Under the pieces are notes generated by a model that did no database searches, was not told the DNA's origin, and saw only the letters and a program-made list of their open reading frames with translations. 14,772 nt of DNA from a virus (taxonomy: Duplodnaviria > Heunggongvirae > Uroviricota > Caudoviricetes), in the IMG/VR virus record IMGVR_UViG_2923323785_000003; one strand, given 5' to 3'. The stretch's first letter is position 1; every line of letters starts with the position of its first letter. Below are positions 1,659-14,574 of this stretch, in pieces. The translations under genes and the position numbers were made by a program.

Positions 1659-4136
1659 TTAAGAATCAGCCTGACTCGGGATCAGTTTTTGCCAGATAAC
1701 TGAAACGTATTTTGCCTGGTAACGGGCGTCATCAAGTGCATTATGGCGCTCACCTTCGAATGGAATAGCCGTTCTGGGATCGAAGTCTATGGCTTTCCCC
1801 AGCTCAACGATTGTGCGTACATCGCGATCGTTGTAGTAACGCCACGGGCAGGGGATCCCCTGCCGTTCGTATGAACGGCGCAAAATCGTGTTGTCGAAGT
1901 TGGCTCCATTTCCCCAGACCTGAACAAAAAATTCACCGGAGTTTTCGTCGATAAATTCCCGCAATTGTAACAGTGCATCATCTAACGGGATTTCATCGGT
2001 CATAATGGCAGATTGCGCTTCGCGTGATTGCTTAAGCCACCATTTAATGGTGTCCCGATCAATGACTCCGCCAGCAGTTTCCAGATCGATAGTCTTACTA
2101 AATTCCGGTCCCATATCTCCGGTTTGCGGATCGAAAAATATTGCACCTATTGAGATGATCGGGGCATCAGGATTTTTTCCCATGGTTTCAAGGTCGATCA
2201 TTAGATGGTCACACGTCCTGCTGGTGGATGTGATTTCGTGATGACCGTTCACCTTAATTGAGTGATCTGCCGTCTCGCCAGTTTCATTATCGCTATTGTG
2301 ATGCTGATTGCCGCCAGTGTTCTCCTTGTGTGGATGTTCAGCGCCTTCCATTTCCTCCGGATCATCTTCCTGAACTTCAACCTGATACTCTTCATCGAAT
2401 GTTTCTTGGTATGTTGCGTCGCCCATCACCGCGCCACAATCAGGGCAGTTGCCGCCGCCGGTCTGACCGCAGGCGGTGCAGACTTTTTCCACTTCCTGTT
2501 GCGCCACTGGTTCAGGCTGTTTCGTTTCTGGCTCGTTTTGTAACGCATTTGGGCTGTTTTGTTCCGCTTTTTGGTAGTTCCGTTCCGATTCATGCTGGTT
2601 CTGGTTCACAGAATCGCGGGTCTGGATCCCCTTAACCCATTTCGGATCATTCGGGTCACTAATCCCTTCAACAAATTCACCACGTGATGCAGCAAGCAAC
2701 TTATCGGCGTCAGGCTGGCTGATATTGGCTGCCTGCATAATTTTGTTTACTTCGTCAGCGGTAACTTTTATCGGCTCTGGTTGTTCTGAATCTTCAGCGG
2801 TATCTACATTTTGCGGTAAGCCCGTGTATGTGCCATTTTTTCGGGCAAAATATTCTTCTTTTGTGATTTCAGTGGCGCCAGCAGCCAGTGCCTTATCCAG
2901 ACCAGAAAGTTTGTTTGCGCGACCGTATTTTTCTCCGTCCTTATCTGCGAAGAGGAAATAGAACGGCCCCTCACGCTCTACAGATGGTTCAGCTTCCGGC
3001 GCGGTTTCATTTTTTGGGATATCAGATACCTCAGTTTCCACTGCATCAGTTTGTGTTTCTGATGACTGGAGAACATCAACAGTGCCCAGGTCTGTTTCTT
3101 CATTCTCAAACACGCCCTTTGTCGTCAGGTATTCGCAGATATATTTGTTCAGTGCTACGGGATCTTTGTGAATGTCGATCGGACGCTCACGGACAAGGCC
3201 AAAAATAGTTTGGCGGTCGTAGCGAAGGGCATCAGGCTGTTTGCGCATTGATGCCGAGATACGCTTCCAGTCTTCGCGGTCGTTGTCGATAACTTCTTTT
3301 TTTGCCCAGCGATGGATGCTGCCGTCAATGTTTCCGGCATCCACATCACCAGGCCAGAGAGCGTAGGCCAGTTCGTCATCCAGTGTTTTCCATGTCTGCT
3401 TGTATTCGCGATGAATGGCAGCAATGACCGGGCTGATTTTTCCTGTTGAATTTTCAGTGTACTGTTGATTGGCTCTGGCTCTGGCGCGGGCGAGATCAAC
3501 AACAGACGTGTATTTTCCGGTTTCCTTGCGTTCACCTTCGCGACGTTTTTTCCAGATGCGCATCTCTGTCTGAATTTCGGGCCATTTAGCACCAGGAATA
3601 CATTTATGCTTAACCCACCCAATGGCGTGCAACTTAAGCTCCGGATACATGGCGTTAACTTCTGGCATTTTCATCAACGCTTCAACGATATGTCCGTCGA
3701 ATGTTGCCATGTCTTCCTGCAACAATTCCTGTGCGCTAATAACCATATCAACGGTGATGTTTTCACATGTGTCGAACTTAACCATGACAGCGTTCTGTAC
3801 TTCAGGGGCCAGCTTGTCAAAAGTGACGTTCATCGGATCGGATTCAGTCTCAACCGGGACAAAAGAAGCAGACTCCTCATCCCAGCGGTTTTCCTGCATA
3901 TATTCAGCATCCCATGAATCGAGGGCAGGGCGGGGTATGCCAGGTTTATCCTCGCAGATAATAAATTTATAAGCGCAGTCCTGAGCAGCCGGATAATGTT
4001 CCAGGAACTGCCAGTGAAATTTTGCTCGAGCACGGCGTTCGTCGCCAGCTTCAATGGCTGTGGCTACAGCCACCGCGCCTTCTCCCCTTGTTGCCAGTTC
4101 GTCAGGAATAGCGGCGCAAATAAAGACTTTACTCAT
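1659..4136 (-). CDS. Prophage exonuclease (RecE-like, often annotated exodeoxyribonuclease VIII) with C-terminal DEDDh (DnaQ-like) 3'-5' exonuclease domain
   Basis: 825-aa ORF. Last ~180 aa (nt ~1700-2210) carry DEDDh motifs: DLETMG (Exo I), NGANFD (Exo II), HNALDDARY (Exo III). Central Cys4 cluster CTAC...CPDC (nt ~2436-2480) followed by an acidic low-complexity linker. Segment LLAASRGEFVEGISDPNDPKWVKGIQTRD matches my recollection of Rac RecE. Lies between xis and the dicB-type operon. Confidence 0.85.
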   Translation of the reverse strand: MSKVFICAAIPDELATRGEGAVAVATAIEAGDERRARAKFHWQFLEHYPAAQDCAYKFIICEDKPGIPRPALDSWDAEYMQENRWDEESASFVPVETESDPMNVTFDKLAPEVQNAVMVKFDTCENITVDMVISAQELLQEDMATFDGHIVEALMKMPEVNAMYPELKLHAIGWVKHKCIPGAKWPEIQTEMRIWKKRREGERKETGKYTSVVDLARARARANQQYTENSTGKISPVIAAIHREYKQTWKTLDDELAYALWPGDVDAGNIDGSIHRWAKKEVIDNDREDWKRISASMRKQPDALRYDRQTIFGLVRERPIDIHKDPVALNKYICEYLTTKGVFENEETDLGTVDVLQSSETQTDAVETEVSDIPKNETAPEAEPSVEREGPFYFLFADKDGEKYGRANKLSGLDKALAAGATEITKEEYFARKNGTYTGLPQNVDTAEDSEQPEPIKVTADEVNKIMQAANISQPDADKLLAASRGEFVEGISDPNDPKWVKGIQTRDSVNQNQHESERNYQKAEQNSPNALQNEPETKQPEPVAQQEVEKVCTACGQTGGGNCPDCGAVMGDATYQETFDEEYQVEVQEDDPEEMEGAEHPHKENTGGNQHHNSDNETGETADHSIKVNGHHEITSTSRTCDHLMIDLETMGKNPDAPIISIGAIFFDPQTGDMGPEFSKTIDLETAGGVIDRDTIKWWLKQSREAQSAIMTDEIPLDDALLQLREFIDENSGEFFVQVWGNGANFDNTILRRSYERQGIPCPWRYYNDRDVRTIVELGKAIDFDPRTAIPFEGERHNALDDARYQAKYVSVIWQKLIPSQADS

Positions 4137-4229
4137 TTTGTTTGAACCTCATGACAGATTTAAGGATGAACAAATCCCTGCCATTGCTGGCATATAAGAA
4201 TGAAACCGGATATTTATTACGGAACTGTT

Positions 4230-4421
4230 TTAAAGACCTGCCGGGATTTCGATATTATCCTGGTGAATAACTTTATCGACCGGGTAACAGTTACCGGGAA
4301 TTTTCTGTTCGGTTGCTGCAGTCATACACTCCTGCATTGTCCTGTGAACACTGACTGCAATATCAACTGGCTCTCCGGAAACAAGAAAAACTGTCAGAAC
4401 AAGCGCAAATGCTGAATTCAT
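4230..4421 (-). CDS. ydfD: Small membrane protein, YdfD-like (63 aa; N-terminal hydrophobic helix)
   Basis: Internal Met of the 81-aa ORF with an AAGGA Shine-Dalgarno about 8 nt upstream. Its ATG overlaps the stop of the upstream gene (ATGA), suggesting translational coupling. N-terminus MNSAFALVLTVFLVSG is hydrophobic. Length and sequence match recalled Qin YdfD. Confidence 0.6.
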   Translation of the reverse strand: MNSAFALVLTVFLVSGEPVDIAVSVHRTMQECMTAATEQKIPGNCYPVDKVIHQDNIEIPAGL

Positions 4422-4606
4422 TGTGCACATCCTTTTGGCATCAGACGTAAACGAGCCAGCATTGAAACAATGCATATTTTATTTAATAGCTCCCGTTCTT
4501 GTTTTCTCTTGTTAATGGCATCTTCAGTAAATACAGGGTTACTGATAGTGACACCAATTTCAAAACAACCTTCAGACGTATTAACGTTTGGTAATAACGT
4601 TTTCAT
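4418..4606 (-). CDS. dicB: Cell-division inhibitor DicB (62 aa)
   Basis: Internal Met of the 97-aa ORF with a GAGGA Shine-Dalgarno 7 nt upstream. Sequence MKTLLPNVNTSEGCFEIGVTISNPVF... matches recalled E. coli DicB. Lies immediately downstream of the DicF sRNA, as in the Qin dicB operon. Confidence 0.75.
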   Translation of the reverse strand: MKTLLPNVNTSEGCFEIGVTISNPVFTEDAINKRKQERELLNKICIVSMLARLRLMPKGCAQ

Positions 4607-4780: not shown

Positions 4781-4833
4781 CGGCGGCAGAGCAGTCACGG
4801 AGTAAAACTGATACCGCCAAACGTCACCAGAAA
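4781..4833 (-). ncRNA. dicF: DicF small regulatory RNA (ftsZ-targeting sRNA of the dicB operon)
   Basis: Reverse complement of 4781-4833 reads TTTCTGGTGACGTTTGGCGGTATCAGTTTTACTCCGTGACTGCTCTGCCGCCG followed by a T5 run, which matches my recollection of the 53-nt DicF sequence and its terminator. Sits just upstream of dicB on the same strand. Confidence 0.75.
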
Positions 4834-6403: not shown

Positions 6404-6466
6404 TTAGGTAATTCTAATTTTTCTTGACTTAGGTATCCCGCGCACAATAATGTTAGAAAAGTCTAA
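6404..6466. promoter_or_regulatory. Right operator/promoter region between divergent dicA-like and dicC-like genes: two TTAG-N6-CTAA sites (6404-6417, 6453-6466) flanking a rightward sigma70 promoter (-35 TTGACT 6424-6429, -10 AATAAT 6446-6451)
   Basis: Same inverted-repeat motif as the left operators (TTAGgtaattCTAA, TTAGaaaagtCTAAC). Promoter hexamers are near consensus with a 16-nt spacer. DicC start at 6479 is preceded by GAGGGGG. Confidence 0.55.
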
Positions 6467-6478
6467 CAAGAGGGGGCT

Positions 6479-6709
6479 TTGATGCTTAAAGTTGACGCAA
6501 TTACTTTTTTTGGCAGCAAAACAAAGCTTGCCAATGCCGCAGGAGTGAGACTGGCAAGTGTTGCTGCTTGGGGGATACTGGTTCCTGAAGGTCGCGCGAT
6601 GCGTCTACAGGAGGCATCTGGCGGGGAGCTTCAGTATGATCCCAAAGTTTATGACGAATATCGTAAGACGAAGCGGACGGGGCGGTTGAACAATGAAAAT
6701 CACTCCTGA
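6479..6709 (+). CDS. dicC: DicC-like transcriptional regulator (Cro analogue)
   Basis: 76-aa ORF divergent from the repressor gene. Segment VPEGRAMRLQEASGGELQYDPKVYDEYRKTKR matches recalled DicC; same length as DicC. Confidence 0.8.
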   Translation: MMLKVDAITFFGSKTKLANAAGVRLASVAAWGILVPEGRAMRLQEASGGELQYDPKVYDEYRKTKRTGRLNNENHS

Positions 6710-6986
6710 ACAGGCTCGTGAGGCTCTGGATGCCTGGATATGTCGACCAGGAATGACACAGGAGCAGGCGACGATATTAATCACTGAAGCATTCTGGGCT
6801 TTGAAAGAGCGCCCGAACATCGATGTTCAGCGTGTCACATATGAAGGTGGCGCGGTTGATCAGCGAGCGCTTAGCGTTAATCGAGTGAAGATATTCGAAC
6901 GCTGGAAGGCTATCGACACCAGGGATAAGCGTGAAAAGTTCACAGCGCTAGTGCCTGCAATTATGGAGGCTACCGTCACTGGATAA
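6693..6986 (+). CDS. Hypothetical early-region protein (YdfX-like position)
   Basis: 97-aa ORF overlapping the dicC stop by 17 nt (operon-like), with protein-like composition. No recognised catalytic motif. Confidence 0.55.
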   Translation: MKITPEQAREALDAWICRPGMTQEQATILITEAFWALKERPNIDVQRVTYEGGAVDQRALSVNRVKIFERWKAIDTRDKREKFTALVPAIMEATVTG

Positions 6987-7061
6987 TCTCAGTCAGATTG
7001 CCTTACTCCGAACGCCCACCGCGTCCGTCCCGTACATTCCAGCAACGCATCTGGAGGTAAC

Positions 7062-7541
7062 GTGCGGGTATTACTTCGACCTGTTCTGGTACCGGAACTC
7101 GGGCTGGTGGTCGTTAAGCCGGGCCGTGAATCCATGCCGGTATTCCACAATACCCGGGTACTGGTGGAGCCGGAACCGAAAAGCATGCGTAATCTGCCGT
7201 CCGGGATCGTTCCTGCCGTTCGCCAGCCGCTGGTGGAAGACAAAACATTGCTGCCGTTTTTCAGTAATGCACGGGTAATTCGTGCTGCTGGTGGTGCTGG
7301 TGCATTGTCTGACTGGCTGTTGCGCCATATTAAATCCTGCCAGTGGCCACACGGCGATTATCATCACAGCGAAACCGTTATTCACCGTTATGGTACCGGC
7401 GCAATGGTGTTGTGCTGGCACTGCGACAACCAGCTGCGTGACCAGACATCCGAATCACTCGAGCAACTTGCTCATCAAAACCTGTCAGCATGGATGATTG
7501 ACGTCATCGGTCACGCAATAATCTTTCATGAAACGACCTAA
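7062..7541 (+). CDS. Hypothetical protein, possibly the C-terminal part of a DUF968/YdfU-like protein (GTG start)
   Basis: 159-aa ORF starting at a GTG with a GGAGG Shine-Dalgarno at 7054-7058. Preceded by a 75-bp non-coding gap where replication genes would be expected. Family assignment is tentative. Confidence 0.45.
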   Translation: MRVLLRPVLVPELGLVVVKPGRESMPVFHNTRVLVEPEPKSMRNLPSGIVPAVRQPLVEDKTLLPFFSNARVIRAAGGAGALSDWLLRHIKSCQWPHGDYHHSETVIHRYGTGAMVLCWHCDNQLRDQTSESLEQLAHQNLSAWMIDVIGHAIIFHETT

Positions 7542-7818
7542 ACGTCGCCGCTGGGTTAACGAGAAATACACTCGCTGGGTGAAGACACAGCCGTGTGCGT
7601 GTTGTGGTAAGCCAGCCGACGATCCCCATCACCTGATTGGTCATGGTCAGGGCGGAATGGGGACAAAATCTCACGATATTTTCACGCTACCGCTGTGTCG
7701 GGAGCATCACAACGAGCTTCATGCGGATCCGCTGGCGTTCGAAGAAAAGCATGGTTCTCAGGTTGATTTAATTTTTCGTTTTCTTGATCACGCCTTTGCA
7801 ACTGGCGTGCTTGGGTAA
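7528..7818 (+). CDS. Small Cys/His-rich putative zinc-binding HNH-like protein
   Basis: 96-aa ORF with CACCG...HH...LCREHHNELH motif pattern. Its start overlaps the stop region of the upstream ORF in a different frame. Confidence 0.55.
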   Translation: MKRPKRRRWVNEKYTRWVKTQPCACCGKPADDPHHLIGHGQGGMGTKSHDIFTLPLCREHHNELHADPLAFEEKHGSQVDLIFRFLDHAFATGVLG

Positions 7819-7830
7819 AAGAGGTGACTG

Positions 7831-8205
7831 ATGCTCATAGATTTGGTTTTACCTTACCCGCCGACGGTGAACACTTACTGGCGACGCCGTGGCAGCACAT
7901 ATTTTATCTCGGAGGAGGGAAAGCGTTATCGCCGGGCTGTGGCGCTTATTGTTCGCCAGCAGCGGCTGAAATTAAGCCTGTCCGGAAGGCTGGCGATAAA
8001 GGTGATTGCAGAGCCACCGGATAAGCGTCGTCGCGACCTGGACAATATCCTGAAAGCACCGCTGGATGCGCTGACGCATGCGGGAGTGTTAATGGACGAT
8101 GAGCAGTTTGATGAAATCAATATCGTTCGTGGTCAGCCAGTATCTGGTGGACGTCTGGGGGTGAAGATTTACCCCATAATGCATGAAGAGCAGGTCAAAA
8201 AATGA
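7831..8205 (+). CDS. rusA: RusA-family Holliday-junction resolvase
   Basis: 124-aa ORF with LPYPPTVNTYWR N-terminus and the RRRDLDNILKAPLDALTHAGVLMDDEQ motif typical of RusA (recalled E. coli RusA has RRRDLDN...KA.FDALTKAG...DD). GAGGTG Shine-Dalgarno upstream. Position before Q is typical. Confidence 0.85.
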   Translation: MLIDLVLPYPPTVNTYWRRRGSTYFISEEGKRYRRAVALIVRQQRLKLSLSGRLAIKVIAEPPDKRRRDLDNILKAPLDALTHAGVLMDDEQFDEINIVRGQPVSGGRLGVKIYPIMHEEQVKK

Positions 8206-9023
8206 AACTGGAAGATTTACCGAAATACTACTCCCCAAAATCCCCTTGCCTGACCGATGCATCGGCCTCAACGTCAAAAGATGCGCTGAGTATCACTGAT
8301 GTGATGGCCGCGCAGGGCATGACACAGAATCGGGCTGAGATGGGGTTTTCTGCGTTCCTGGGGAAAATGGGCATCAGTATGAATGACAGGGCGCGGGCAA
8401 CAGAATTACTGGCAGATTATGCACTCAGTCGGTGCGATCGTGTGGCGGCGTTGAGAAAACTTCCGGCAGAAATAAAACCGGTAGTGATGCGCATTATGGC
8501 TTCGTACGCTTTTGAGGATTATGCCCGCAGCGCAGCGAGTAAAAAGCAGTGCCCTTGTTGCTATGGGGAAAAATTTATTGAAAGCGTAGTTTTTACAAAC
8601 AAGGTCCAGTATCCGGATGGTAAGCCGCCGGTATGGGCAAAGTGTACGAAAGGTGTGTATCCGTCTTACTGGGAAGAATGGAAAAAAGTCAGGGAGGTGG
8701 TAAAAGTTGCCTGTCCGGAGTGTGGCGGAAAGGGTGAGGTTTCCACCGCCTGTAAGGATTGCCGTGGGCGTGGTGTCGCCATTCACCGTGAAGAGTCGGT
8801 AAAACGTGGTATGCCTGTTATCAGAGACTGCCAGCGTTGTGGTGGTCGTGGCTATGAAAGACTACCATCAACGGAGGCATTTAATGCTATATGCGAGGTG
8901 ACAAACCAGATAACACGCGCGTCATGGGAAAAAACAGTTAAGAAATTCTATGATGCGCTGGTGACCCGGTTTGATATTGAAGAAGCATGGGCTGAGCGGC
9001 AGTTAAAAAAGGTAACTAGGTAA
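8202..9023 (+). CDS. Late-gene antiterminator Q (QuuQ-like, with Cys-rich zinc-finger repeats)
   Basis: 273-aa ORF whose ATG overlaps the rusA stop (ATGA). Repeated CxxCxGxG-type motifs (CPECGGKG, CKDCRGRG, CQRCGGRG). Immediately followed by a candidate late promoter and intrinsic terminator, then tRNAs and lysis genes. Confidence 0.7.
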   Translation: MKLEDLPKYYSPKSPCLTDASASTSKDALSITDVMAAQGMTQNRAEMGFSAFLGKMGISMNDRARATELLADYALSRCDRVAALRKLPAEIKPVVMRIMASYAFEDYARSAASKKQCPCCYGEKFIESVVFTNKVQYPDGKPPVWAKCTKGVYPSYWEEWKKVREVVKVACPECGGKGEVSTACKDCRGRGVAIHREESVKRGMPVIRDCQRCGGRGYERLPSTEAFNAICEVTNQITRASWEKTVKKFYDALVTRFDIEEAWAERQLKKVTR

Positions 9024-9028
9024 CAAGG

Positions 9029-9056
9029 TTGATTTTTCCGGAATCTGTGGTAAATT
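9029..9056 (+). promoter_or_regulatory. Candidate late promoter (pR'-like) downstream of Q
   Basis: -35 TTGATT (9029-9034), 16-nt spacer, -10 TAAATT (9051-9056), followed about 50 nt later by an intrinsic terminator, as in lambda pR'/tR'. Confidence 0.4.
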
Positions 9057-9104
9057 CGTCATAACGATGGGCTTTTTATGCCTGACGTTAGAAGAGTTTC
9101 TACA

Positions 9105-9129
9105 ACCCGCCGCCGAGCGGGTTTTTTAT
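9105..9129 (+). terminator. Intrinsic terminator (tR'-like) read through under Q antitermination
   Basis: Stem ACCCGC / GCGGGT with 6-nt loop, followed by TTTTTTATT. Confidence 0.6.
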
Positions 9130-9166
9130 TGCGGAATTAATTACGGACCGTTATTATTCTGCTCAC

Positions 9167-9242
9167 GGCCCTTTAGCTCAGTGGTGAGAGCGAGCGACTC
9201 ATAATCGCCAGGTCGCTGGTTCAAATCCAGCAAGGGCCACCA
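9167..9242 (+). tRNA. tRNA with CAU anticodon, Ile2-type (ileX/ileZ-like; tRNA-Met cannot be excluded)
   Basis: 76 nt. 7-bp acceptor stem GGCCCTT/AAGGGCC, D-arm GCTCAGTGGTGAGAGC, anticodon loop CTCATAA, T-arm GCTGGTTCAAATCCAGC, 3' ACCA. Close to recalled E. coli ileX. Confidence 0.85.
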
Positions 9243-9342
9243 TCACAAACCGCCATTAGCTTATCAGGAAGAGCAGACGACGCGATAACAGGGTTGTTGG
9301 TGCGGGGGCGGGTCCCCGATGGCGGTCCATTATCGGTATTCA

Positions 9343-9419
9343 GCGTTGTTAGCTCAGCCGGACAGAGCAATTGCCTTCTAAGCAATCGGTCACTGGTTCG
9401 AATCCAGTACAGCGCGCCA
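9343..9419 (+). tRNA. tRNA-Arg (anticodon UCU, reads AGA/AGG)
   Basis: 77 nt. Acceptor stem GCGTTGT/ACAGCGC (one G-U pair), D-arm GCTCAGCCGGACAGAGC, anticodon stem ATTGC/GCAAT with loop CTTCTAA, T-arm ACTGGTTCGAATCCAGT, 3' GCCA. Confidence 0.85.
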
Positions 9420-9529
9420 TATTCATTCTTCCAGATTCCTTCCGGCAGAGCCTTATACTGAAATATACCTGGCTCAGGATCTTGTTGAAAATATTATATG
9501 TTTGTCAAAAATAAAAGTTCTGTCAAGTA

Positions 9530-9883
9530 TTGATTGAGTGTTTGTTATACCGTCTAATGGTTTTTTCAGCATTAAATATTTATCATTCATATGGTGTGGG
9601 TAGAGTGAATATTGATGAGGCGTCGGGGTGTTTCATCCTTAGGCAGCGTATTGATATAGTCAATGCAGCACGAGCAAAGGCCTTCAGCCGTTTGACAGTT
9701 TTGTTTTGTACTCCTGATCGTCTTTCGGGAAGAGACGTTATTATTCTGAATAGTGATGCTATACAGAGGGTTTGCGATGAGTTCATGGTTGCTAATTCAG
9801 AATTATTTGCTCTTGTTCAGGAGTACAACAGAATAGCCAGGACCTGTGGTATGGATGAACTTCGGATTACTCATCTGGGGTAG
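9530..9883 (+). CDS. Hypothetical protein (cargo ORF downstream of the tRNAs); start uncertain (TTG at 9530 or ATG at 9557)
   Basis: 117-aa ORF. C-terminal half looks protein-like; no convincing Shine-Dalgarno; no family recognised. Confidence 0.3.
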   Translation: MIECLLYRLMVFSALNIYHSYGVGRVNIDEASGCFILRQRIDIVNAARAKAFSRLTVLFCTPDRLSGRDVIILNSDAIQRVCDEFMVANSELFALVQEYNRIARTCGMDELRITHLG

Positions 9884-10357
9884 ATACATATCTGGATTAT
9901 CACCTGTTACGGTAAAAAGTTATTGCTTACTGTTTTTGTGAATGGCATTGCAGCAGCCGGATAATGTCAGTGCTGGCTGACGGTGTGCTGGTGGCGGGTG
10001 TGGTGGTTATTGCTTTCCCGTTGCTGAAAAAGAAAACGCCGGACTGTTAGCCGGGTATCAGTTAGCGGGAGAAATTTTTAAATACTTCACAATTCAGGCG
10101 GTTGACTGTTGTCTGGTTTGCGGGGAGTTTGTTAAAAGAAACTGGCATGGTGAATCCCCCTGTGCGGAGGGGCAATCAGCGAGTAGGTATATGGGATAAT
10201 CGCGGATTCAGGTGCTGGTACTGAATTCACCGGGAGGCACCCGGCACCATGCACTTCAATAGATTCTCTCCACATTATGGATATTCTTTCAGAATATCCC
10301 ACGCAGACTTTGTGTAAATGTTAACAAATGTGCGTTTTATTTGATCTGATTCGCTGT

Positions 10358-10387
10358 TTGAGCGTCCAAAACAACGGTATATATAAT
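10358..10387 (+). promoter_or_regulatory. Candidate sigma70 promoter for the first lipoprotein gene
   Basis: -35 TTGAGC (10358-10363), 17-18 nt spacer, -10 TATAAT (10382-10387), about 30 nt upstream of the start at 10417. Confidence 0.4.
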
Positions 10388-10416
10388 CCTTTACTATATG
10401 ACATATGTGAGGAAAA

Positions 10417-10845
10417 ATGGGTTTTCGTAGCGCATCAATTCTTACGTTGATTATTAGTGGGATTATTATCGGGTGCACTGATGCTGTATCGACAAATTAT
10501 CATGACCGTACATCATATTACTCCGATAAAGCAATAGAGACACAGTATGTGAGTTCATCTGAACGTACTTCTGATGTTAGTGAGGATATCCGTCTGTATG
10601 CCCATCAAATCAAGAGCGCCATCGAAAAACAGTTCGGGGATGCGAGTAAGTATTCAGGAAAAGAGTGTACACTGAGAATGCATATGGCCCCGAATGGCCT
10701 TCTACTGGAGGTTAAAAGAGAAAGTGGAGACCTCGATTTATGTCGTGAAGCGATGAATGCGATAAAGAATGCTGATATACCTGCCCCCCCTTCGCCGGAA
10801 GTATATAAAGTATTTCAAAATGGGGTGCTGGATTTTAAACCCTGA
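10417..10845 (+). CDS. Lipoprotein with C-terminal TolA domain-III-like domain
   Basis: 142-aa ORF with GAGGA Shine-Dalgarno. Lipoprotein signal peptide with lipobox IIGC. C-terminal ~87 aa (IRLYAHQIKSAIEKQFGDASKYSGKECTLRMHMAPNGLLLEVK...LCREAMNAIKNADIPAPPSPEVYKVFQNGVLDFKP) align with my recollection of the E. coli TolA C-terminus (...YAGQIKSAIESKFYDASSYAGKTCTLRIKLAPDGMLLDIK...LCQAALAAAKLAKIPKPPSQAVYEVFKNAPLDFKP). Confidence 0.85.
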   Translation: MGFRSASILTLIISGIIIGCTDAVSTNYHDRTSYYSDKAIETQYVSSSERTSDVSEDIRLYAHQIKSAIEKQFGDASKYSGKECTLRMHMAPNGLLLEVKRESGDLDLCREAMNAIKNADIPAPPSPEVYKVFQNGVLDFKP

Positions 10846-10995
10846 TATTTATTGTTTTGTAATAAACGGTTTCGGCTTAGGTTTGTTCTGACACAACTAC
10901 GGCACTGAGCTAAATTTAGCGGATAGTCAGCTCTGAGCCAGTGGCGGACGTAACAACTACTATTGCTGAGATTTTAATGGATTGAGGAGCAAGAA

Positions 10996-11391
10996 GTGGG
11001 ATTAAAGAAAATCGTTATGTTGACTTTTTGGGTCGGTTTTGTTGCGGGATGCACACCTTTACACCCTTCAGATTGCCACAAAACTACTGCTACAGGTAGT
11101 TGCAGTTCAGGACGCTGGGATGATCAGGATGAATGGGGGGCGCAAGCGCGGGGAATCAGAGCTGCAATTAATGCCAAACTTGATGAGCCGCATAACTGGA
11201 AAGGGAAAAAATGCAGGTTGCATATGGAATTCTCTCAGGATGGCACGGCGTTAAAAATATCTACCAGTAACGGTGATAAAGCCTATTGCGAAGCGATAAA
11301 GTCCGCAGCTCATAAAGCCAAATTTCCGGCCTTCAACAATCCGGAAGTCTACAGAGATTTTCAGAAATCTGGCTTTGACATGCGAGGTTAG
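10996..11391 (+). CDS. Second lipoprotein, diverged paralogue with TolA domain-III-like C-terminus (GTG start)
   Basis: 131-aa ORF starting at GTG with a GAGGAG Shine-Dalgarno 6 nt upstream. Signal peptide with lipobox VAGC. C-terminal region (KGKKCRLHMEFSQDGTALKI...YCEAIKSAAHKAKFPAFNNPEVYRDFQKSGFD) shares the two-Cys spacing and PEVY..FQ motif with the upstream paralogue. Confidence 0.8.
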   Translation: MGLKKIVMLTFWVGFVAGCTPLHPSDCHKTTATGSCSSGRWDDQDEWGAQARGIRAAINAKLDEPHNWKGKKCRLHMEFSQDGTALKISTSNGDKAYCEAIKSAAHKAKFPAFNNPEVYRDFQKSGFDMRG

Positions 11392-11516
11392 CTCTTCAAT
11401 TACTATATCTCATTCATAGCAAACTGACAGATTTGATGATGTTCTATATACGAAACCTGTGATGTCAAGTCTGAGCTAATACAAATAAACATAATATCAG
11501 AGAAATACATTTTATT

Positions 11517-11543
11517 AGCTCGCTACGGCGAGCTTTTTATATT
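11517..11543 (+). terminator. Intrinsic terminator closing the lipoprotein transcription unit
   Basis: Stem AGCTCGC / GCGAGCT with loop TACG, followed by TTTTTATATT. Confidence 0.65.
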
Positions 11544-11642
11544 GCATCGTCTCCAGCATATATATCAATTATGGCTCTGATTGATGTGTCTGGAAGCCTA
11601 CACATAATAACTATGCCATCCGTTCCGTGCGGAGGTGAGGCT

Positions 11643-11858
11643 ATGAAATCCATGGACAAAATTTCAACAGGCATTGCCTACGGCACCTCCGCAGGCAGTG
11701 CTGGCTACTGGTTTTTACAGCTGCTCGATAAAGTCACGCCCTCACAGTGGGCAGCAATAGGTGTGCTGGGTAGCCTGGTATTTGGCCTGCTGACGTACCT
11801 GACAAACCTTTATTTCAAGATTAAAGAAGACAAGCGTAAGGCTGCACGGGGAGAGTAA
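11643..11858 (+). CDS. Class II holin / pinholin of the S21 / EssQ / EssD type, with dual-start motif (MKSM)
   Basis: 71 aa from the ATG at 11643, preceded by GGAGGTGAGG. Sequence [71 protein letters not shown] closely matches recalled phage 21 S21 and E. coli EssD/EssQ holins. Confidence 0.85.
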
Positions 11859-11862
11859 TTCA

Positions 11863-12177
11863 ATGACTCAAAAATATGAACTGATTGTGAAAGGGATCCG
11901 CAATTTTGAGAATAAAGTTACGGTAACTTTAGCGTTACGGGACAAAAAACGCTTTGACGGTGAAATTTTTGACCTGGACATCTCGCTGGACCGTGTTGAA
12001 GGTGCCGCGCTGGAGTTTTATGAGTCAGCAGCCAGAAGGAGCATCAGACAGGTCTTCCTGGATGTTGCTGCCGGGTTATGTGAAGGGGACGAGCTGTTGC
12101 CAGAAACGCGCCCCTGTTCAGAGGCGCGGTATACCATAAAAATTAACAGTTCTGATAACTCGATTACGGGTTGTTAG
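11863..12177 (+). CDS. YdfR-like small protein (DUF1327-type) that follows the holin in Qin-like prophages
   Basis: 104-aa ORF 4 nt after the holin stop. Length and position match ydfR, which lies between essQ and the endolysin in Qin. Sequence identity is not confirmed. Confidence 0.55.
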   Translation: MTQKYELIVKGIRNFENKVTVTLALRDKKRFDGEIFDLDISLDRVEGAALEFYESAARRSIRQVFLDVAAGLCEGDELLPETRPCSEARYTIKINSSDNSITGC

Positions 12178-12232
12178 CTTTTTGCAGTTGGCTTTCCGGT
12201 ATCTTTCATTGGTAGCATCCTGATAAATATCC

Positions 12233-13174
12233 ATGAGCGCAAAAATCAAATACGCCCTGTCAGCTGCTGTTCTGGCGCTGATTGCTGCAGGCGCGTCTGC
12301 TCCTCAGATACTTGACCAGTTTCTGGACGAAAAAGAGGGTACCGGAGTCGGAAGTTGCCGGACCTTGCAGATGAAGGCGCATTACAGAAATGGTGGTCTG
12401 TTCTACCGTTCTTCAAGAGACGGTTATGGTTTTGAGGAAGACTGGGCAGAAGTTTATACCTCGAAAAATCTTCCACCAGAAAGCTACCCAGTCGGCGCAC
12501 CAATCCCGTGGCCATCAGATACCGTTCCGTCTGGTTATGCCCTGATGCAGGGGCAGACTTTTGACAAATCTGCCTACCCGAAACTTGCAGCCGCTTATCC
12601 GTCAGGCGTGATCCCTGATATGCGTGGCTGGACGATTAAGGGCAAGCCCGCCAGTGGTCGTGCCGTATTGTCTCAGGAACAGGACGGCATAAAATCGCAT
12701 ACCCACAGCGCCAGCGCATCCAGTACTGATTTGGGGACGAAAACCACATCGTCGTTTGATTACGGCACTAAATCCACGAATAACACTGGTGCGCATACCC
12801 ATAGTTTAAGTGGCAGCACGAATGCAGCTGGTAATCACAGCCATAGAGATGGCCGTCGATTTAACCCCAGTGTTTTTAAAGATACTTATCAATATGGTTA
12901 TACAAGCTCAGGTCAAAATACCTGGGGTGTGCAAGGCTCAGTAGGTATGTCTACGGGGGCGTTAGCTAATACCAGTACAGATGGTAACCATAGCCACTCA
13001 CTGTCCGGCACAGCAGCATCTGCAGGTGCACACGCACATACTGTCGGTATTGGTGCACACACGCACTCCGTTGCGATTGGTTCACATGGACACACCATCA
13101 CCGTTAACGCTGCTGGTAACGCGGAAAACACCGTCAAAAACATCGCATTTAACTATATTGTGAGGCTTGCATAA
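12233..13174 (+). CDS. stf: Side tail fibre protein, C-terminal receptor-binding portion (lambda orf-314 / StfQ-like; N-terminally truncated relative to full-length Stf)
   Basis: 313-aa ORF with [50 protein letters not shown] and repeated HxH motifs (HTHS, NHSH, HAHT, HGHT) typical of lambda/T4-type fibre tips. Stop overlaps the tfa start (TAATG). No Shine-Dalgarno, and it sits directly after ydfR-like, consistent with a deletion remnant. Confidence 0.8.
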
Positions 13175-13755
13175 TGGCATTCAGAATGAGTGAACAACCA
13201 CGGACCATAAAAATTTATAATCTGCTGGCCGGAACTAATGAATTTATTGGTGAAGGTGACGCATATATTCCGCCTCATACAGGTCTGCCAGCAAACAGTA
13301 CCGATATTGCACCGCCAGATATTCCGGCTGGCTTTGTGGCTGTTTTCAACAGTGATGAGGCATCGTGGCATCTCGTTGAAGATCATCGGGGAAAAACCGT
13401 CTATGACGTGGCTTCCGCCGACGCGTTATTTATTTCTGAACTTGGCTCGTTACCGGAAAATGTCACCTGGTTATCGCCGGAAGGAGAATATCAGAAGTGG
13501 AACGGCACAGCCTGGGTGAAGGATACGGAAGCAGAAAAACTATTCCGGATCCGGGAGGCGGAAGAAACAAAAAACAGCCTGATGCAGGCAGCGAATGAGC
13601 ATATTGCGCCACTTCAGGATGCTGTAGATCTGGAAATCGCAACGGAGGAAGAAAACTCGTTGCTGGAAGCCTGGAAAAAGTATCGGGTGTTGCTGAACCG
13701 TGTTAATACAACAACTGCACCGGATATTGAATGGCCAGTAGCACCTATAGGGTAA
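13174..13755 (+). CDS. tfa: Tail fibre assembly protein Tfa (lambda Tfa / TfaQ-like)
   Basis: 193-aa ORF. N-terminus [39 protein letters not shown] and C-terminus [24 protein letters not shown] closely match recalled lambda Tfa. Confidence 0.92.
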
Positions 13756-13871: not shown

Positions 13872-14340
13872 AGTACATAAACGTACAAAATGTGATGAAA
13901 GTAGAGTGGCGTAAGCCACTATATTAAGATATGACAATAGCGAACAAAAGTAAATAACATTTTATGGACGTTTAATTGTTAATTATAAAAACTAGAGTGC
14001 CCGATATTGTTTATCTTGCTTTAAAATAATGTACTCAAACCAAATTTTTGAGCTAAAAGCTCAAATAATATAAATGCAATGATAATGTTTAATAAGACAA
14101 TTAGCTTGCTTTGTATTTTCATTTCGGAATACTGTTAAGTAACTTTGATGACCCTAACAATAGATCGGAATTTTCTTAGAGTCAATGGTCACTGTTTTTG
14201 TTTGCAAAGCAAATGTTTTGGTGGTTATAAGTTTTCCTAATATAGTCACCTATGCAACTTGTTCCGTGTGGAGATTAAAGGTTAAAATTTAATGCGAAGA
14301 TGGAATTATAATATATTTTTTTATAATTAATTTAACCTTA

Positions 14341-14440
14341 ACATCGTTGCTGGCGGCATGGAAGAAATATCGGGTCTTGCTGATATCGTGTTGGCACTTC
14401 CTTAGTGCGGTTATCGAATGGCCAGCTGTACCTGTGGGGT
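14341..14440 (+). pseudogene. Orphan 3' end of a second, diverged tfa allele
   Basis: Translates in frame as [30 protein letters not shown]-stop, paralleling the intact tfa C-terminus ([29 protein letters not shown]); about 80 percent nucleotide identity over the terminal ~90 nt. No upstream ORF. Confidence 0.6.
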
Positions 14441-14574
14441 AAAAACTTTATATGGATGCTATTTTTATAATAGCTGGTAAAAACTGGCCGAACTGAAATT
14501 CACTGTTGATAAAAAAGATGTGTTTGAGTGTATGTCATTGTTTTCTTAATGGAATCCACTAGAATGCAGCGAAT

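Follow-up and report, generated by a model that had tools for sequence, protein, structure and literature searches.

An in-frame endolysin-tail fibre junction downstream of an intact pinholin-type holin gene in a defective Qin-like prophage of Escherichia coli

Gene content and lysis region of the prophage

The window, which is the whole stretch of 14,772 nucleotides analysed in this study, matched the chromosome of E. coli MB06101 (NZ_CM129890.1) with 99.99% identity and a single indel at position 14087. Its content is that of a short, defective Qin-like lambdoid prophage at rspB, and the insertion site in the E. coli chromosome is flanked by rspB on one side and by ydfJ/ydfI on the other; the host gene ydfI, beyond the right end of the prophage, is annotated as truncated by PGAP. 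The left part of the prophage contains int, xis, exo, ydfD, dicB, DicF, and a repressor/cro pair, the middle part contains remnants of ydaT and of a DUF968 gene followed by rusA and Q, and the right part contains two tRNAs, two genes with a TolA C-terminal domain, the holin gene, ydfR, a 313-codon ORF, and tfaQ. The Qin-like prophage of 55989 occupies the same rspB/ydfJ site and shares the order int-xis-exo-ydfD-dicB-DicF...rusA-Q-tRNA-TolA'-holin-ydfR with the window, and its essD-DUF1327-lysozyme-Rz...stf-tfaQ region is intact. The left part of the window showed 99.1-99.9% nucleotide identity with this same-site prophage as far as base 12341. Compared with 55989, a 4.4-kb deletion has removed the replication, hokD, and rem genes from the early region of the window, and 292 bp are deleted from the DUF968 gene.

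The holin gene (11643 to 11858, plus strand) comprises 71 codons and encodes an intact class II holin of the phage 21 S type (pinholin type). Holins of this family form small pinholes, by which the membrane is depolarised but through which a cytoplasmic endolysin does not escape. The deduced protein matched PF04971 (Bacteriophage P21 holin S) with 122.2 bits (cut-off 26) over profile positions 1 to 63 of 64, its PHROG matches were phrog_9876 and phrog_20, both holin, and it was 95.8% identical to the product of the S71/S68 gene of phage 434. The gene opens with a dual start, ATG AAA TCC ATG (11643 to 11654; Met1-Lys2-Ser3-Met4), which corresponds to a form of 71 amino acids from Met1, equivalent to the antiholin, and a form of 68 amino acids from Met4 (position 11652); the equivalent starts of phage 434 are annotated as antiholin S71 and class II holin S68. 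The Shine-Dalgarno region for both starts, GGAGGTGAGG (11631 to 11640, plus strand), was read from the sequence, has GGAGGT at 11631 to 11636, and is located six bases 5' of the holin start, and the phage 434 annotation has two ribosome-binding sites at the equivalent place, one for S71 and the other for S68. The MKSM dual start and the tandem Shine-Dalgarno arrangement are thus shared between the window holin and the phage 434 gene. The PF04971 match, the MKSM start, and the GGAGGT at 11631 to 11636 bear out the sequence-only reading of the locus, which had described an intact S21-type holin with a dual start and a strong Shine-Dalgarno sequence.

Two transmembrane domains (TMDs) were recognized in the holin translation, of which TMD1 is rich in small residues and weakly hydrophobic (SAR-like). 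TMD2 carries G40, S44, and G48, a face that we take to be the motif of S21. The aromatic patch reads YWFLQL in the window holin vs. YWFLQW in S21, and the loop between the TMDs reads LDKVTPSQ vs. LDQVSPSQ (bioRxiv 10.1101/2021.04.20.440580). Through the MKxM dual-start motif, an antiholin is made that is longer and has one more positive charge at its N-terminus (PMC9636201). The accession of the holin, WP_000839561.1, is identical to that in the apparently intact 55989 prophage, and exactly this sequence was found on at least 1000 contigs; in MB06101, two other places match the lysis region.

Downstream of the holin, an intact gene of the YdfR family (DUF1327) was found at 11863 to 12177 on the plus strand, in agreement with the YdfR-like ORF that had been proposed there. 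Its product matched PF07041 with an E-value of 1e-38 and 131.6 bits (cut-off 25), and its PHROG match was phrog_2735, a class of no assigned function. The protein (WP_000192454.1) is identical in the 55989 prophage. Unlike the cassette of phages 21 and 434, the window has ydfR between the holin and the endolysin, an arrangement also present in 55989, strain 53, CFSAN061769, and phage mEp460, and the related cassette of the K-12 Qin cryptic prophage is presumably essQ-ydfR-rrrQ-rzpQ. A sequence search of the PDB with YdfR gave no relative, and the NCBIfam search gave no match for the holin, YdfR, the product of the 313-codon ORF, or Tfa. The last of these is encoded by an intact tail fibre assembly gene, named tfaQ by PGAP, at 13174 to 13755 on the plus strand (PF02413, E 2e-43).

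The gene for the antiterminator Q (8202 to 9023, plus strand) is intact, encodes 273 amino acids (PF03589 Antiterm, E 6e-55; annotated by PGAP as 'antitermination protein'), and lies 2.6 kb 5' of the holin. A putative late promoter pR' was read from the sequence just after Q at 9029 to 9056 on the plus strand (TTGATT-16 nt-TAAATT); with 8 of 12 matching positions, its score is below the listing threshold of the promoter scan, and the assignment follows from lambdoid gene order. This is followed by a tR'-like, terminator-like hairpin and T-run (9104 to 9123, plus strand) with a 7-bp stem including 5 GC pairs and then TTTTATTG. A second terminator-like hairpin with a T-run (AGCTCGC-TACG-GCGAGCT; 11517 to 11539, plus strand) lies approximately 100 nt 5' of the holin start, and its RNA fold (hairpin at 11517 to 11534) was calculated at -13 kcal/mol (z = -3.3 vs. 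shuffles). The interval between Q and the holin, with the putative pR' and both hairpins, corresponds to a normal lambdoid late-operon layout, and therefore the holin would be made only on Q-dependent read-through, that is, by Q-modified RNA polymerase transcribing from pR' after derepression of the prophage.

A sigma-70 promoter for the holin itself had been suggested by the sequence-only reading. The hexamers TTGATG and CATAAT, separated by 16 nt, are indeed present at 11581 to 11608 on the plus strand, but they match at 9 of 12 positions, which is the minimum score in the scan, and sites of 9/12 or better occur at chance frequency (13 in 5 kb vs. 9.4 +/- 3.2 in shuffles). The nucleotide match to phage mEp460 begins at window position 11628 and that to PhiR47_1 at 11605, with the candidate promoter upstream, and the phage 434 sequence 5' of the holin differs from that of the window. 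As a chance-level match outside the region conserved with mEp460 and PhiR47_1, this site was rejected as a dedicated promoter.

The deletion junction and the chimeric ORF

The breakpoint was located by a three-way alignment of the window with its two parental arrangements. Window positions 7520 to 12341 are colinear with 55989 (L003, 15950 to 20771) at 99.86% identity, and positions 11571 to 12340 show 100% identity with 55989 and with many other genomes in which the full lysozyme gene comes next. On the other side, the window from 12340 to its end is colinear and gap-free, at 98.5% identity, with the stf-tfaQ-hypothetical region that CFSAN061769 carries in its Qin-site prophage, and the tail-fibre region of the window is 99.1% identical to stf and tfa of strain 602354. 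The lysozyme parent matches through 12341 and the tail-fibre parent from 12340, so that the junction (12340/12341) carries a 2-bp microhomology, TA, common to both parents.

The alignments place the breakpoint within the endolysin gene and not after ydfR. Positions 12178 to 12232 (plus strand) are the native intergenic spacer between ydfR and the endolysin gene, inside the uninterrupted match to 55989, and positions 12233 to 12340 (plus strand) hold codons 1 to 36 of the gene for a SAR endolysin, with the same sequence as the 5' end of the 55989 lysozyme gene. The sequence-only reading had placed the junction at 12178 to 12232, which is off by approximately 110-160 bp, and had taken the next gene for a truncated tail fibre without a ribosome-binding site; alignment to intact Qin-like cassettes gave a match that continued unbroken through 12341, and the ORF starts at the endolysin ATG with 36 endolysin codons fused in frame. 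A cassette cut directly after ydfR, with a tail fibre gene alone following, would be consistent with the ATG at 12233, which has no good Shine-Dalgarno sequence, and with the Pfam search, which sees tail-fibre domains alone in the 313-aa ORF. It was nevertheless ruled out by the identity with 55989 through 12340, as 12178 to 12340 are its intact spacer and endolysin start, residues 1 to 36 are the lysozyme N-terminus, residues 1 to 38 match phrog_6543, and PGAP labels the segment as a lysozyme fragment. Because the ATG at 12233 is the endolysin start, the weak ribosome-binding site before it is the native one of the endolysin.

The chimeric ORF (12233 to 13174, plus strand) encodes 313 amino acids, consisting of 36 endolysin codons and 277 tail-fibre codons in frame. 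The tail-fibre part (12341 to 13174, plus strand) represents the last 277 codons of a side tail fibre gene, with the collar and fibre repeats (PF07484 and PF03335); it also matched phrog_295, tail fibre. Intact stf homologues have approximately 1,130-1,180 residues, of which the last 277 are kept here; the N-terminal tail-attachment domain is absent, and the C-terminal collar and fibre repeats as well as the downstream tfa are present. In the PGAP annotation of MB06101, a 'lysozyme, missing C-terminus' and a 'tail fiber protein, missing N-terminus' abut at window position 12340/12341, and the pseudogene status of both halves has thus already been annotated (RefSeq/PGAP).

The parental cassette in 55989 comprises essD, DUF1327, a lysozyme of 177 amino acids (PF00959 over residues 33-167), and Rz (PF03245). 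This SAR lysozyme belongs to the RrrQ type, shares 32% identity with R21 of phage 21, and has the same E35/D44/T50 spacing as R21, these residues having been placed by aligning the 55989 lysozyme to R of phage 434. The first 36 endolysin codons remain in the window, and Rz/Rz1 are gone. The stump keeps the SAR domain and the catalytic Glu35, and Asp44, Thr50, and the remaining lysozyme fold have been lost; in the Pfam search, the chimera has no PF00959 lysozyme domain, which its 55989 parent has. The 55989 Rz gene (PF03245; L003, 21495 to 21959) is part of the stretch that the window lacks, and the PGAP annotation of the MB06101 locus contains no spanin. Judging from these sequences, the pinholin-SAR endolysin cassette is incomplete, with no cis endolysin that has the catalytic triad and no spanins. 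The earlier proposal that the endolysin and Rz/Rz1 were missing was right in that no working copies are present, but a 36-codon endolysin stump remains.

Estimated from coordinates, approximately 24.1 kb are missing compared with 55989 and approximately 24.2 kb compared with CFSAN061769. The segment of 55989 without counterpart begins at lysozyme codon 37, takes in the greater part of stf, and includes the lysozyme body, Rz/Rz1, the terminase, portal, and head genes, and the tail genes. The deletion thus took every gene for the virion.

Occurrence of the junction and comparison with other fusions

The junction was present in 1 of 5,426 complete E. coli genomes and in a few draft assemblies. 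Scans for the exact junction in the GTDB species representative genomes and in the JGI metagenomes gave no match. In independent assemblies, 8 contigs encode a chimeric protein identical to that of the window (ELG50012.1 in E. coli KTE101). KTE101 (GCA_000352505.1), GCA_002484635.1, and an ENA metagenome scaffold have the same genes around the junction; the scaffold, which is one of the 8 contigs, differs by 14 SNPs. In every junction-bearing assembly, the holin gene, ydfR, and the chimera are intact ORFs. The full lysis cassette, by contrast, was found to at least 80% of its length in 887 genomes, and intact holin-endolysin pairs are far commoner than the orphan holin.

A mis-join between repeated prophage sequences was considered as the source of the junction, as lysis and tail-fibre modules repeat within genomes, with five matching places in MB06101, and the MB06101 record is labelled as whole-genome shotgun. 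The two parents, however, share 2 bp and no repeat at the join, the window itself is one indel away from MB06101, and the same chimera occurs in the same context in KTE101, GCA_002484635.1, and the metagenome scaffold. An assembly artefact has therefore a negligible probability and was ruled out, and the occurrence of the same junction in independent assemblies identifies it as a genuine deletion of a small lineage.

A fusion like that of the window was found in a remnant at the Rac site in EC361 and 16 other complete genomes, where essD is directly followed by a gene for a 735-aa 'tail fiber protein'. It results from an independent deletion that joined the beginning of a SAR endolysin gene to a tail fibre gene in the same reading frame, and it also keeps the upstream holin and the downstream tfa. 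Unlike in the window, the endolysin is of the R21/RrrD type, is cut at approximately codon 55, and keeps the catalytic triad; the fusion contains approximately 680 tail-fibre residues, has no ydfR, and lies at a different chromosomal site, and its junction shows an imperfect microhomology of 10/14 vs. the 2 bp of the window. A third fusion was found in one draft genome, in which an RrrQ-type endolysin cut at codon 47 is joined to the last 44 tail-fibre residues, also between holin-ydfR and tfa, and all three fusions are in frame. This third fusion came out of a protein search with the endolysin N-terminus, whose listing covered proteins of 105 residues or fewer, and several frameshifted stumps were also among the matches listed.

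Origin of the locus and fate of the retained genes

The locus is very probably that of a decaying Qin-like prophage, in which a deletion of approximately 24 kb at a 2-bp microhomology left the holin and the chimera as neutral leftovers. A single illegitimate recombination at the TA microhomology would have joined endolysin codon 36 to the last 277 codons of stf, leaving Q, the leader region of the late operon, which includes the tRNAs and moron genes, and then the holin, ydfR, the chimera, and tfaQ. The chimera and the holin would then be remains of a fairly recent deletion and not a domesticated module. Decay statistics of prophages describe the same pattern, with the integrase and tail fibre kept and the lysin, terminase, portal, and head genes lost, and there is no essential difference between such generic defective prophages and the window (PMC7744054). 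Against the view of neutral leftovers, it can be noted that the holin gene, ydfR, and the chimera are still intact ORFs wherever the junction occurs.

Retention of the orphan pinholin as a membrane-depolarising toxin or abortive-infection effector, which would kill the cell without lysis upon infection or induction, was regarded as improbable. Such a role had been put forward in the sequence-only reading and found no support here, with no PADLOC match, a rare junction whose flanks are 98.5-99.9% identical to intact prophages, and an unchanged holin that still occupies its usual Q-dependent place in the late operon behind terminator-like hairpins. The search of PADLOC-DB 2.0 (E <= 0.01) with six proteins (the holin, YdfR, the chimera, Tfa, and the two TolA-like proteins) gave no match to any defence model, and a known defence system was rejected on this ground; in literature searches on ydfR/essQ and on holins, cryptic prophages, and abortive infection, nothing specific to orphan holins was found. 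The holin ORF with its dual start and Shine-Dalgarno sequence is intact, as is Q, and the holin is undamaged in the independent assemblies that bear the junction, all of which would suit an effector. [quoted passage not shown] If made in quantity, the window holin would likewise be expected to form pinholes and depolarise the membrane, and depolarisation or death without lysis is predicted since neither an endolysin nor a spanin is left in cis, an outcome that could be altered by the SAR endolysin of another prophage. The accession of the holin is the same as in the intact 55989 prophage, and therefore there is no sign of specialisation. The junction occurs only in a single complete genome and a few drafts that are nearly identical, which leaves selection little time to have acted or become visible. 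Neither a dedicated sensor nor a dedicated promoter accompanies the holin, the proposed promoter being at chance level, and the intact holin-endolysin pairs are, as described above, far commoner.

For the chimera, a function such as that of a membrane-tethered or periplasmic receptor-binding domain, in which the SAR anchor would carry the fibre tip and block receptors or superinfection, perhaps together with Tfa, appears very unlikely. The reading frame is kept, the native endolysin start and the whole SAR domain are present, two other independent endolysin'-'Stf fusions are in frame in the same holin...tfa context, and incomplete prophages are enriched for tail-fibre genes (PMC7744054). Chance alone, however, would put one third of such fusions in frame, and the third fusion was recognized through its protein sequence, which biases the set toward in-frame cases. 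The tail-fibre parts of 277, approximately 680, and 44 residues argue against a common function, and the fusions are rare, occurring in 1, 17, and 0 of the 5,426 complete genomes, respectively. Because tail fibres normally fold together with Tfa in the cytoplasm, export by Sec should prevent assembly of the fibre. Purifying selection was also considered for the chimera of the metagenome scaffold, in which all six differences are synonymous, and was dropped; the differences are clustered, as in gene conversion from a paralogous stf or mixing with one in the metagenome-assembled genome.

The two further in-frame endolysin'-'tail-fibre fusions could hint at more than chance, in a sample that is tiny and partly biased. 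On account of the one-in-three chance of keeping the frame, the recognition bias, the differing lengths, and the rarity, the three fusions are treated here as recurrent neutral decay. There is a slim chance that in-frame SAR-tail-fibre fusions with a pinholin upstream and tfa downstream are a recurrent and selected form of prophage domestication; the host would then gain a Q-triggered module for non-lytic suicide or depolarisation, a membrane-tethered anti-phage receptor-binding domain, or both.

In summary, the locus is an ordinary, already-annotated scar of prophage decay, and the main value of its analysis is a correction, as what had looked like a tail fibre gene with no ribosome-binding site is a pseudogene of chimeric origin that opens with the SAR domain of an endolysin, and the breakpoint is inside the endolysin gene. 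If orphan holins or SAR-tail-fibre chimeras were under selection, they would represent a new class of domesticated phage parts. As a decay scar, the locus provides an example, resolved to the base, of how a lambdoid prophage is disarmed, in which the leftover holin is predicted to be still capable of killing the cell.

Fusions at the endolysin 5' end

Besides the chimeric ORF of the window, two more independent fusions were found in which a SAR-endolysin N-terminus continues in frame into a tail-fibre C-terminus. One lies at the Rac site of E. coli EC361 (locus L002, positions 6459-8666), joins approximately 55 endolysin residues to approximately 680 tail-fibre residues, and is present in 17 of 5,426 complete genomes. 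The second fusion, from a single draft assembly (GCA_012845765.2; locus L015, positions 4001-4276), consists of 47 endolysin and 44 tail-fibre residues. Both resemble the window in that the holin is located 5' and tfa 3' of the fusion. Similarly, the proteins P0066, P0077, P0086, and P0159 are encoded by short ORFs that open with the same endolysin N-terminus as the window chimera, which is followed in this group by Rz1-like, TonB/TolA-like, or tail-protein-L sequence. Many distinct deletions across E. coli assemblies therefore have the 5' end of this gene as their left border.

The metagenome copy of the junction and the tfa region

The same junction in an ENA metagenome scaffold (L011) differed from the window by 14 SNPs, which were clustered in regions corresponding to window positions 12496-12727 and 13542-13595; all six SNPs within the chimeric ORF were synonymous and at the third codon position. 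These clusters look like gene conversion from a paralogous tail-fibre copy, or bin mixing with such a copy.

In the tfa region, a full-length Rfam match to IS009 (212 bits; 13517-13715, plus strand) fell wholly within the tfaQ coding sequence, and this 'RNA family' match coincides with a conserved protein-coding segment. Further downstream, a 31-codon ORF (14347-14442, plus strand) carries the Tfa C-terminal motif (…AWKKYRVLL…IEWP…P.G), to which 16 of its 31 residues are identical. It is probably what remains of an alternative, second copy of tfa, of the kind present in invertible tail-fibre segments.

Late-operon leader and TolA-domain genes

The putative pR' and its terminator are directly followed by two tRNA genes (9167-9242 and 9343-9419, plus strand), a tRNA-Arg (TCT) gene and one with anticodon CAT that was called Met by ARAGORN and Ile by PGAP, the latter being consistent with the lysidine-modified ileX type. 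The late-operon leader also contains a match to the Rfam STnc100 sRNA family (10116-10306, plus strand; 114 bits, gathering score 47), 5' of two paralogous genes with a TolA C-terminal domain (PF06519; phrog_5772, unknown function) at 10417-10845 and 10996-11391 on the plus strand. The first is a TolA fragment according to PGAP in the window locus and a full 142-aa gene in E. coli 55989. The N-terminus of the second is lipoprotein-like (…FVAGC). The pair occupies a moron position, flanked 5' by Q and the tRNAs and 3' by the holin. A PADLOC search with the TolA-like proteins returned no match. We speculate that they could counter TolA-dependent colicins or filamentous phages by serving as a periplasmic decoy that carries the TolA domain.

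Early-region deletions and potentially toxic functions

Comparison with E. coli 55989 revealed two additional deletion scars, at approximately 6970-6975 and 7520-7521. One corresponds to the loss of 4.4 kb comprising the ydaT C-terminus, replication genes, DUF977, DUF5677, hokD, and rem; the other, to the loss of 292 bp inside the DUF968 gene. With replication genes lost, the prophage is replication-defective as well.

On the minus strand, the DicF antisense sRNA (4781-4832; 72.5 bits) is grouped with dicB, encoding a cell-division inhibitor (4418-4606), and ydfD, annotated as 'lysis protein YdfD' (4230-4421). The remnant therefore retains additional early-operon functions that are potentially toxic independently of the holin.
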